DNA from: an uncultured bacterium
Lineage (GTDB): Bacteria > Omnitrophota > Omnitrophia > Omnitrophales > Abzuiibacteriaceae
Direction of reading: 5' to 3'
Length of the DNA: 64,000 nucleotides
Assembly (NCBI GenBank): GCA_964387845.1
Contig: CAYLXA010000001.1
Coordinates: 96,001-160,000 of the forward strand
Shown here: piece after piece, positions 24,964-27,900 of the stretch
How the letters are laid out: each line of letters starts with the position of its first letter
Numbering within the stretch: position 1 is the first letter of the stretch
Notes under the pieces: model-generated
What the model was told of the DNA's origin: nothing
The model's input: the letters and a program-made list of their open reading frames with translations, nothing else
Database searches by the model: none
Program-made: the position numbers and the translations under genes

Positions 24964-27900
24964 TTACGCCATTTGTGCGATACGGAGTTCGGAGCGGACT
25001 TGAGCGGTGATAATATTGCTAACACCTGCTACCGAAAGGAGTTCGGTGACGTTTTGGGCGTAACTGACATCAAAACCTTCATAGGAACGAAGTAAGCTTT
25101 CGCCCGGGGCTAAGATAACTTTAATTTGGGTAAAACCTTTTTCGTGAAGTTTATCTTCTACGCGGGACCAATAGGGCGGCATGACTTCGATTTGTTTATC
25201 TTCAGAAAGCCAGTCGTTTACGATTTTCACAATTCCCTTTGAAAACGGTGTATCGTCCACAATCACAACCTTTTGATCGAGTGAGTTCGCAATCCAAAAG
25301 AGGGCTTGCGTGAGATTGTTTTCGCTTTCATCTCTCAATGTTTTTCCTGAAATCGCAAGCGCGATTTGGGTGTTCGAAAGATCGGAAAGCGAAAGATTAA
25401 CAACATTCGCAGCGGCTTCTTTGAGAGCAAAACTAGTTGAGTCCACGTCTGTCTTGATGCTTTGCTCGATTAAAGATTTGAGTTTGCCGAAGATTTCGCT
25501 CGTGAGGACGGTTGTGCTCAAACTACCGAGAGCTGCAATGACTTCATTTGGACGCGCTACAGGCTCTGCATCTTTAACTTTTCGTTTTGCTACCACGCGA
25601 AAGTCGAAAGTGTCAGCCGCATCTGACGATCTCTGCATCACCAAATCAAAAGGACGATCGAGCAGGCTGACTTCTCCTTTGAATGCATCCTGAGTTGTGA
25701 AATCTGGTATCTTTCTGATTTCTTCTACAACCACCCTTTCAACTTGTTTCGCATCGGCGCCGCCCAGCAATTCGGTATTGATATCTGTAATAGAAATACG
25801 AAGTTCGGACTTTGCCGCCACGGTTTGCACGCGCTCTTCCAGCAAAGACCGTTTCTCCTGAACTTGCTGCATTAGCCGCCAGCTGCGGATAAGTTCGGCG
25901 CGCATATCATTGAGCAGCATGCCAAGCTGTATGTTCAAACGATCTAAATGCTCTATGGTTAACCGATCAATCATGTCTTTTGATTCCGGAAGTTTTGGAA
26001 TTTCGGAATATCGGGCCTGATAGTGTTTCTCAACGTCGGAAATTAATAATAAATCGGTTAATTTATCTCCTAATTTGCGTAAAAACTCGGGAGCTTTTGT
26101 TTTGATGCCTTTTGCCTCGAGAATTTGCGCAAGCTTTTCCTTGTCAACCGAGCTGATGTTTGTTCTAGTTTCGCCGACAAATTGATTAATATTGTTGAAC
26201 CGTCGCCTTAATTTTCCTAAAAGCTCCGGAAAATCTTCGCTTTGTTTTGCTTTAATTGCATTGATCTTGCCAGCTCTTCGGCGCTCGGTGCGGCTAATAT
26301 TTCTCAACTCGGAGCGAGGCGATGCTTCTACGGGCTTAGCGAATGCGCGGATAAATTTTTCGGATGATTGAAAAGCTTTGGAATTTTTAAACCGGACCAG
26401 GAGCATGCCTGACTTTCGAGAAGAATCGATAATGATGTGATGGTCATTGATAAAAGCCGTGTGTGTTTCGGCATCGTACAAATCGGCTTCCTCAAAATCA
26501 GTCGGCGGTGTATGTCCTGAGATCAAATACTCGCTTTCTAGCGTAGATAGAAACTGCTCTAAAAATTCAGGTTCATAAAAGCGGTCCCATAAAACATCAT
26601 CAATTGTCCCGTGTAGAATTTTAATTTCATTGACCTGTTCTTTTGATGTGTACGATTGGTTCGGCCCGGCATGCACAAATGCCAAACGATGCTTTGCTTT
26701 ACTCTTGTCTGCAATAGTCAGCACAATCGGCATTTGCCGGATAACGTAAGCCAAATAATTCAAAAGAAAATTGTAAACGGTATTGCTGTCCAATCCGCTA
26801 GCCGACTCAGGCCCGGCGTTGACAAAATCTTCGATCGCATTCTCTAGTTGGCCGGTTTGATCAGTATCAAATTTTCCGGGGCGAGTTCCTCCGGCATGCG
26901 CATAATCATGATTGCCGGGTAATAAATGAACCTGCTTAGGATATTTAATTTTGAGCTGCAATAAAATGAGCAAAGTACGCAGAGATTCCAAATAGGCTTT
27001 CTTGTTCCGCGCTTTTTTTTCATCGATTGTGTGCAAGTAATCGCCGATCGCAACGATATGATTTTTAGGATTTTGAAGGAACGCTTCTTTGCCGAGTTCT
27101 TCGAATCGCTTCGTAAAATTTCCGGTTGCGCCATGCAAATCGCCAAAAACAGCAACCGAATTCACGCCCGCAATTTCGGCCAATGCGCCGGGATCATCAC
27201 CCAGCCATTTGCGCTCACTTTCCGCATAAGATTCGCGCAGAGCTTTTCCCCCGGCTTTCAGAATTGTCATCACTTGATCGGGCGAAACGCCTTCAAGCGC
27301 ATAACCTTCGAGTGGAATGTCTTCCGGTTTATCACTTTCTTCGCGCAATTCTGAGCGCTTGAGTTTGGGCGGTTTGGTGAATTTAATATCAAAGGGTTTT
27401 ACGGCTTCTTCAGGAAGCTGAACTTGATCTAAAAATGCGTTGTATTTTTCCGTCAAACCTTCGGCTTCTAGAAATACCTGGATAGATTCGCTTTGCTTTC
27501 CGATTAAACCCAGAATGGATGATAAGTGGTGATTGCCGACATAAATTTTCGACACTTGGCCGTCTGCTGTTGCAGATTCAAAATTACCGTATGGCCCCGC
27601 CAGCTTGTTCAACTGTTTCAGAATGGATGCGCGCCAATTGAGAATTGTTTTTGGTGCAAGCAGTGAAAAACCGTCAAGTCCATACAGCGAACTGATCGTA
27701 TAGTTGGTCGGTTCGTCTGTTTCGTGAAACGGGAAACCGATTTTGCCTTCGTATTTTTCTGTCGCCGGATCTACGGATTCGGACAAAAACCCGGGAAGAC
27801 CGTTTTGATATGCATAATCCATCGCGGCTTTCAGGAAGTTTTCATAAACGATTTTGAAGCGTTTGTTCTTCATAACATAAGGAACTGCCCAACCCATCTG

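Follow-up and report, generated by a model that had tools for sequence, protein, structure and literature searches.

A PPP-like phosphatase cassette in a SELR-punctuated giant open reading frame of an Omnitrophota bacterium

Introduction

Does the phosphatase carried by a giant open reading frame (ORF) of an uncultured Omnitrophota bacterium act as part of one large protein, or is it a cassette that is cut out of a precursor? The question is raised by a 64,000-nucleotide stretch of contig CAYLXA010000001.1 (positions 96,001 to 160,000; the whole stretch is called the window, and its own numbering is used throughout). The largest ORF of the window (24964-35817, reverse strand) starts with TTG and runs uninterrupted for 3,617 residues. 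It is split by 12 copies of the tetrapeptide SELR into 12 modules, each ending in SELR, usually with Arg or Lys before it. In a preliminary description a calcineurin-like metallophosphoesterase was recognised in module 10 from short signature motifs, and its presence beside a protease, a glycosidase-like domain and helix-turn-helix (HTH)-like repeats was taken to suggest a toolbox or effector polyprotein. The reading favoured here, with a probability of about 0.6, is that of a competent cassette resembling the phosphoprotein phosphatases (PPP) in a precursor cut at or near SELR.

Identification of the domain

Translation of 26302-27357 (reverse strand) reproduced the peptides from which the phosphatase had been called, AVFGDLHGATGNF, IVAIGDYLHTIDE and LLPGNHDYAH, in that order. 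The SELR copies flanking module 10 were found at 27343-27354 and 26302-26313. A Pfam search matched the module to Metallophos (PF00149) with E = 2.7e-11 over profile positions 3-189 of 191, and the score of 44.7 bits exceeded the curated cut-off of 21.5. Since this match is far above chance level, the calcineurin-like metallophosphoesterase is confirmed, and module 10 is almost certainly a genuine domain of the Metallophos superfamily.

Active site

Module 10 was aligned with its relatives in a shallow family alignment of 13 sequences. The ordered blocks of the dinuclear site of the superfamily (DxH, GD, GNH[DE], H and GH) were all present, including two that the preliminary description had not listed, VHAG (His224) and GHT (His277). 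Invariant or near-invariant columns were D68, H70, G71, H95, H104, N144, H145, H224, W252, R254, G276 and H277. Among these D68, N144, H224 and H277 were invariant in the 13 relatives and H70 and H145 nearly so; D101 was kept in 10 of the 13 and was Glu in 3 short relatives. No metal ligand was lost from module 10, which keeps the full set. The second motif had been described as GDxxD-like, which did not hold on alignment: the relatives conserve GDxxH with an invariant His104, and the Asp of 'TID' is not conserved. With the numbering checked on a PP1-alpha sequence, the PP1 equivalents are taken to be D64/H66 for D68/H70, D92 for D101, N124/H125 for N144/H145, H173 for H224 and H248 for H277.

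Of the PPP signatures, GDxHG is present and GNHE appears as GNHD, a conservative E-to-D change; the relatives carry GNHE or GNHD. To judge from its sequence, module 10 is a member of an uncharacterised clade in which motif II reads GDxxH[PT] and is followed by an insertion, in place of GDxVDRG.

Sequence and structure comparison

In a phmmer search of the PDB, module 10 matched PPP phosphatases led by BSU1 (E = 1.1e-6), with PPZ1 and PP1 among them, and the sole matches outside the PPP enzymes were two weaker branched-chain aminotransferase chains (E = 0.42). A profile of the 13-sequence alignment matched BSU1 at 2.6e-13 and PP1 at ∼5e-11. The profile alignment passed through GDxHG, GD, GNHE, 'vHGG' and 'LLWsD', and the 'RAH' block was covered by a second, weak stretch. 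No other module of the ORF had sequence relatives in the PDB.

An AlphaFold (AF2) model of module 10, built on the shallow 13-sequence alignment, had a mean predicted local distance difference test score (pLDDT) of 78.6 and a predicted template modelling score of 0.84. The predicted fold is the two-sheet beta-sandwich of metallophosphoesterases. The best 50 matches of the model in a Foldseek search of the PDB were all PPP enzymes; WipA and WipB were much poorer structural matches than PP1, PP5 and calcineurin. The closest structures and sequences are thus PPP enzymes and not other metallophosphoesterases, and the best sequence or structure match falls outside the ApaH and Mre11-SbcD families. 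In answer to the comparison with PPP and Mre11/ApaH-like families proposed in the preliminary description, module 10 is PPP-like and neither Mre11- nor ApaH-like. Taken with the motifs, module 10 is classed as a Metallophos member that is built, and is predicted to work, like a PPP, yet is not a canonical PPP.

SELR punctuation

SELR occurs 12 times in the ORF against an expectation of 0.14, and no further copy was found in any of the six frames of the window. The copies are encoded by 2-5 different codons per position, including AGC versus TCN, AGA versus CGN and TTG versus CTN, a variation that points to selection on the peptide and not on the DNA. A DNA-level repeat or recombination site was rejected on the same ground. 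The last copy lies five residues before the stop codon, where it makes no sense as a mere linker.

Four of the five strongly hydrophobic segments of the protein begin 2-13 residues after the start of a module (chance P ∼4e-5). These are a Sec-like segment (module 1), a lipobox LSGC (module 7), a transmembrane segment (module 8) and a twin-arginine (Tat)-like SRREF signal (module 9). The signals are placed as if each such module were an independent exported protein.

Internal translation starts were considered and rejected, as no consistent start codon with a Shine-Dalgarno sequence followed the junctions. Promoter-like and terminator-like sites within the ORF were no more frequent than in shuffled sequence. 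In a simple scan the GC-rich DNA coding for RSELR gave terminator-like hairpins at 29193-29210, 33414-33431 and 35520-35537.

Relatives of the phosphatase

With module 10 alone as query, a word-indexed search gave no match at E ≤ 1e-3. HMMER, run exhaustively against 1.84 billion representative proteins, gave 96 relatives at the same threshold. Stand-alone relatives of 282-313 residues span about residues 10-335 of module 10 and are therefore co-extensive with it. All 80 metagenome relatives (80/80, loci L008-L087) were stand-alone ORFs of 280-735 residues. In 18 of the metagenome loci an S-adenosylmethionine methyltransferase-like gene (∼240 residues) followed downstream on the same strand (e.g., L065, 10871-11638); this recurrent follower is frequent in a distant subgroup of 285-residue stand-alone relatives. 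A PF10294 gene adjoins the relative P0137, comparable to the methyltransferase followers. A PADLOC search gave a negligible match only.

Module 10 was the only module of the ORF to match other giant proteins (BLASTP, phmmer), and several of these carry recurring motifs of their own. P0004 (3,070 residues, annotated 'metallophosphoesterase [Candidatus Omnitrophota bacterium]', L007 8001-17213) contains [AS]ELR eight times, P0010 (4,484 residues) SE[GSA]R 12 times, and P0002 (7,186 residues, with five phosphatase copies) A[SA]S[LM]G 23 times; P0013 and P0021 have a weaker A-x-SLG motif. Most phosphatase copies of P0002, P0004 and P0010 have a core that begins ∼44-55 residues past one motif and is complete before the next. 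The motif codons vary in P0004 as well, where 8 of the 12 matches in the six frames of its DNA fall in the frame of the giant. Sister cassettes lie beside Ser/Thr kinase and FHA domains in P0010 and beside FHA domains in P0013. The C-terminal ends of the other giants had no detectable homology to module 12.

An N-terminal domain of ∼500 residues (IQDAH...AQ.NI...EG...GAEY...TGGFH) is shared by P0002, P0004, P0010, P0013, P0021 and P0030. It gave a sub-threshold Pfam match to PF04187 (ChaN, Tiki superfamily; E = 0.0011) and is a candidate processing protease.

Motif pairs in the other giants are often 18-54 residues apart and would release short spacer peptides. The giants end in Ala, usually as part of a small-residue pair: QMA in the protein studied here (P0001), VAA in P0002, SSA in P0004, RAA in P0010, VAA in P0013, KAA in P0021 and ISA in P0069. 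These endings recall C-terminal degron or processing tags.

Table 1. Features of the giant ORF and of its phosphatase module (window coordinates unless given as ORF residues)
Feature	Position	Strand	Remarks
Module 10	26302-27342	-	ORF residues 2826-3172, 347 residues; whole phosphatase cassette including the terminal SELR
Pfam Metallophos core	26506-27156	-	Module residues 63-279
Motif I, GDLHG	27130-27144	-	Asp68 and His70, metal ligands; aligns to GDIHG of BSU1/PP1
Motif II, GDYLH	27031-27045	-	Asp101, bridging ligand; His104 clade-invariant, at the canonical PPP VDRG position
Motif III, GNHD	26905-26916	-	Asn144, ligand; His145, general acid
Motif IV, VHAG	26665-26676	-	His224, ligand; HGG block in PP1
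LWDR	26581-26592	-	Trp252 and Arg254 clade-invariant; aligned with the PP1 LLWSD block
Motif V, GHT	26509-26517	-	His277, ligand; PP1 match from a second, weak aligned stretch
C-terminal tail of module 10	26302-26382	-	Module residues 321-347 including RSELR; predicted disordered, pLDDT <50
SELR copies (start coordinates)	35521, 35149, 34546, 33409, 32485, 30673, 29194, 28831, 27343, 26302, 25798, 24982	-	
SELR before module 10	27343-27354	-	Ends module 9, directly precedes module 10
Last SELR	24982-24993	-	Followed by IAQMA and the stop codon
Module 6	30673-32484	-	604 residues; repeated HTH units
Module 7	29194-30672	-	493 residues; lipoprotein-type signal LSGC 6 residues after SELR; HEMAH motif
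Module 9	27343-28830	-	496 residues; Tat-like signal (SRREF plus hydrophobic stretch) 13 residues after the preceding SELR
Hydrophobic segments	ORF residues 3-21 (module 1), 1722-1740 (module 7), 2221-2239 (module 8), 2343-2361 (module 9)	-	

Other modules of the ORF

The HTH repeats reported on the same polypeptide were recovered by Pfam as HTH_11 (E = 8.9e-7, above the cut-off). For the protease, the HEMAH (HExxH) motif of module 7 stands, and both family matches were below their cut-offs (Peptidase_Mx1, 22.2 bits against 25.6; TIGR04549, 27.4 bits against 75), leaving a weak candidate. Module 9, taken earlier as the glycosidase-like domain, had no Pfam match. Compared with the PF10091 protein of the window, it gave an hhalign probability of 16% and a BLASTP E value of 2.2, and its AlphaFold model was unusable (pLDDT 37.5). 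The single homologue of module 9 is a stand-alone protein, P0146, with a lipoprotein signal of its own that lines up with the beginning of the module. The PF10091 protein, a stand-alone 'putative glucoamylase', is encoded at 12611-14704 (reverse strand; E = 1.1e-70); its C-terminal GPYG...HHL...GL faintly, and not significantly, resembles module 9.

Genomic neighbourhood and distribution

The gene content of the window is that of an ordinary bacterial chromosome. On the downstream side of the giant ORF are hom, a pyridoxal phosphate-dependent (threonine synthase-like) gene and genes for phosphoglycerate mutase, aspartate kinase, a LeuA-like protein and valyl-tRNA synthetase; upstream lie genes for fumarase and subunits of a 2-oxoacid:ferredoxin oxidoreductase. 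Elsewhere in the window are phosphotransferase system and HPr kinase genes, Lpt genes, UvrB, a resistance-nodulation-division (RND) efflux operon, NrfA and one tRNA-Pro. A second large ORF (48298-54060, forward strand, 1,920 residues) contains nine Flg_new_2 (InlB B-repeat) units and a PKD-like domain, and no SELR.

The closest hom in the GTDB species genomes (57% identical) belongs to a Candidatus Omnitrophota metagenome-assembled genome (MAG; L001, JAFGJY010000012.1). Compared with 18313-37750 of the window, the gene order downstream of hom looks kept in this MAG, as judged by ORF lengths. Upstream of hom it has neither a giant ORF nor SELR motifs, and the fumarase and oxidoreductase genes are not conserved there. 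At this position the giant ORF thus seems specific to its lineage. The giant protein is identical to database protein P0001, a singleton, and is recorded only from a 409-kb NCBI contig and from Logan contig SRR15237813_35004. No orthologue of the whole ORF other than itself was found among the 1.84 billion representative proteins, and no relative of the whole protein in the genome-contig and metagenome-contig collections.

Discussion

Module 10 is probably an active phosphatase, to judge by its motifs. Two metal ions bridged by D101 would activate a water molecule, His145 would protonate the leaving group, and Arg254 with His104 may take over the phosphate binding of PP1 R96/R221. Action on protein substrates is, on balance, predicted. 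Phosphoproteins are the most likely substrates because the fold and sequence neighbours are protein phosphatases and sister cassettes share a polypeptide with kinase and FHA domains; the phosphomonoesters hydrolysed would be pSer and pThr, possibly also pTyr. The giant ORF would be a precursor, cut by a putative protease at or near SELR. Module 10 would then be freed as a cytoplasmic enzyme of ∼39 kDa, and modules 7 and 9, once freed, would present export signals of their own, of the lipoprotein and the Tat type, respectively. This putative release by proteolysis is rated at just under an even chance.

The earlier suggestion of a polyprotein is plausible as a hypothesis. It is favoured by the motif punctuation, by the export signals that follow the motif, by the co-extensive stand-alone homologues and by the predicted disorder of the module 10 tail that runs into SELR. 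Several complete units of the ORF occur elsewhere as proteins in their own right (modules 10 and 9), and the units are separated by a recurrent short boundary motif that is conserved at the protein level. A motif uniform within a giant and different between giants is the pattern expected of a protease and its cleavage sites in polyproteins. More tentatively, some Omnitrophota giant ORFs, among them the one studied here, may be true bacterial polyproteins with a virus-like 'cleavage grammar': a genome-specific motif at every module boundary would be cut by a co-evolving protease, and of the complete proteins thus released some would go on to use newly exposed Sec, lipoprotein or Tat signals. 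The phosphatase would be a recurrent cassette of such a system.

Several results weigh against parts of this interpretation. For the enzyme, no NCBIfam model matches module 10, the best matches are ∼30% identical and annotated only as 'hypothetical' or 'metallophosphoesterase', with no characterised close relative, and the structural model depends on few sequences. The PPP signature GDxVDRG is absent: module 10 reads GDYLHTI, the clade consensus is GDxxH[PT] and the bridging Asp alone is kept, so that substrate binding must differ from that of a canonical PPP. For protein substrates, Pfam found no kinase or FHA module in this giant ORF, and the methyltransferase gene is the one partner in a genomic context of stand-alone relatives that is otherwise uninformative. 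For cleavage, no protease specific for SELR was found in Pfam, NCBIfam and N-terminal-domain hidden Markov model (HMM) scans, and an HMM of the Tiki-like N-terminal domain matched nothing in this ORF or in the whole window. The N-terminal Sec-type signal of the ORF fits awkwardly with cytoplasmic processing. P0069 carries the phosphatase module and no punctuation, and the co-occurrence of motif and phosphatase is biased, as the punctuated giants were found through the phosphatase.

The missing protease also bears on whether the protein is cut at all. It could stay intact as a membrane-anchored multi-domain scaffold, with SELR as a conserved linker or as a short docking motif, either for a partner protein or, like RVxF for PP1, for the phosphatase itself, and with module 10 acting in cis or on neighbouring proteins. 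Omnitrophota giants have been described as multi-enzyme and membrane-anchored, with cleavage explicitly left open in the literature, and a polytopic topology could result from the Sec-like signal together with the other four hydrophobic segments. That every punctuated giant recovered carries the phosphatase would suit a docking motif, but this co-occurrence is an ascertainment artefact. Only five residues ahead of the stop codon, a linker or tether would serve no purpose, and the motif is uniform within each giant and differs between giants. The lipobox and the twin-arginine motif, which normally function at an N-terminus, sit 6 and 13 residues after SELR, and modules correspond over their full extent to stand-alone proteins, including the signal peptide. 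An uncut scaffold is accordingly held to be rather unlikely. The same N-terminal Sec-type signal could instead mean that the whole precursor is exported and processed outside the cell or in a host or prey, with module 10 as a secreted or injected effector and the HTH modules acting there too. Omnitrophota have been proposed in the literature to be predatory or episymbiotic, and the locus is lineage-specific and missing from the syntenic region of the nearest MAG. Module 10, however, has an acidic N-terminus and no export signal of its own, the Tat and lipoprotein signals inside the ORF imply a start in the cytoplasm of the producer for the modules that bear them, and no secretion-system gene or effector-delivery domain was found in the window. 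Structure does not favour this reading either, with WipA and WipB ranking far below PP1, PP5 and calcineurin. The label of effector given in the preliminary description has no direct support, and this explanation is considered improbable.

The substrate could also be a phosphoester that is not a protein, for example Ap4A, nucleotides or the 2',3'-cyclic or 3'-phosphate ends of polynucleotides. Replacement of the canonical phosphate-binding VDRG and the lack of a kinase or FHA module in this ORF would agree with such a substrate, but the PPP-typical LLW block is kept and sister cassettes lie beside Ser/Thr kinase and FHA domains. Such substrates are viewed as unlikely, if marginally less so than an effector role. 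The altered motif II, and an ORF with no orthologue among the 1.84 billion proteins, could also indicate an inactive pseudo-phosphatase, a pseudogene in decay or an artefact of assembly or fusion. Against this, module 10 has lost none of the six ligands and keeps the general acid, all of them conserved in the clade, a stop-free run of 10.8 kb cannot occur by chance, the same protein is on record from NCBI and from a Logan assembly, and the motifs are conserved at the protein level. The chance of inactivity or artefact is very small.

Taken alone, the phosphatase is a routine result in a very large superfamily. Its value lies in the access it gives, since its relatives reveal the same cassette between protein-specific recurring motifs in other Omnitrophota-type giants. 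SELR-type punctuation offers concrete, testable candidate cleavage sites for the processing of giant proteins. The phosphatase is best described as a new divergent member of a known superfamily; what looks new is the arrangement of cassettes delimited by motifs.

Comparison with known systems

Module 10 shares with PP1, PP5, calcineurin A and BSU1 the block order GDxHG, GD, GNH[DE], H[AG]G, LLW, GH, the six ligands and the general-acid His. It differs from PP1-type PPPs, to which it is only ∼20% identical, in having no equivalents of PP1 D95 and R96, motif II being GDxxH[PT] with an insertion. Beyond LLW the following segment is much reduced in length and includes the invariant Arg254 in LWxR, and IIIDSS is read where the SAPNYC toxin-binding loop would be. 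With the bacterial-type PPP-like enzymes (Shewanella Shelph, 1V73; phage lambda PP, 1G5B; RLPH2; ApaH) it has in common that it is a compact single-domain prokaryotic enzyme. The I-D-S-type block near its C-terminus presumably recalls the (I/L/V)D(S/T)G of the bacterial-like PPPs.

Omnitrophota giants with many enzymes, some with Ser/Thr phosphatase domains, have already been described (West-Roberts et al., 2023, bioRxiv 10.1101/2023.11.21.568195; Nielsen and Lui, 2026, bioRxiv 10.64898/2026.06.07.730766), and calling the domain mix very unusual, as in the preliminary description, was therefore an overstatement for this lineage. The published work treats cleavage as unsettled and states that cleavage points are not known (10.1101/2023.11.21.568195; 10.64898/2026.06.07.730766); the polyprotein reading, if true, would supply them. 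Term searches found 'polyprotein' in neither paper, and the 2026 paper was also without 'cleavage', 'linker' and 'motif' (10.1101/2023.11.21.568195; 10.64898/2026.06.07.730766). A literature search turned up no description of bacterial polyproteins of this kind, of Omnitrophota polyproteins or of the SELR motif. The ORF studied here resembles the published giants in its phylum-level neighbourhood and in the unrelated enzymatic and regulatory domains that tile one ORF with a signal peptide and transmembrane segments. Unlike them, it has 3.6 thousand residues, far below the published thresholds of 10-30 thousand, and each of its modules ends in SELR.

The arrangement is also comparable to viral polyproteins and polyubiquitin precursors, with several complete units per ORF joined by the same short junction motif, and with a motif that differs between lineages. 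Unlike these, the giant ORF is bacterial and chromosomal, and its polyprotein status is putative. As in polyubiquitin, the last unit carries a short cap (IAQMA); unlike those of polyubiquitin, the units of the giant ORF are unrelated to one another.

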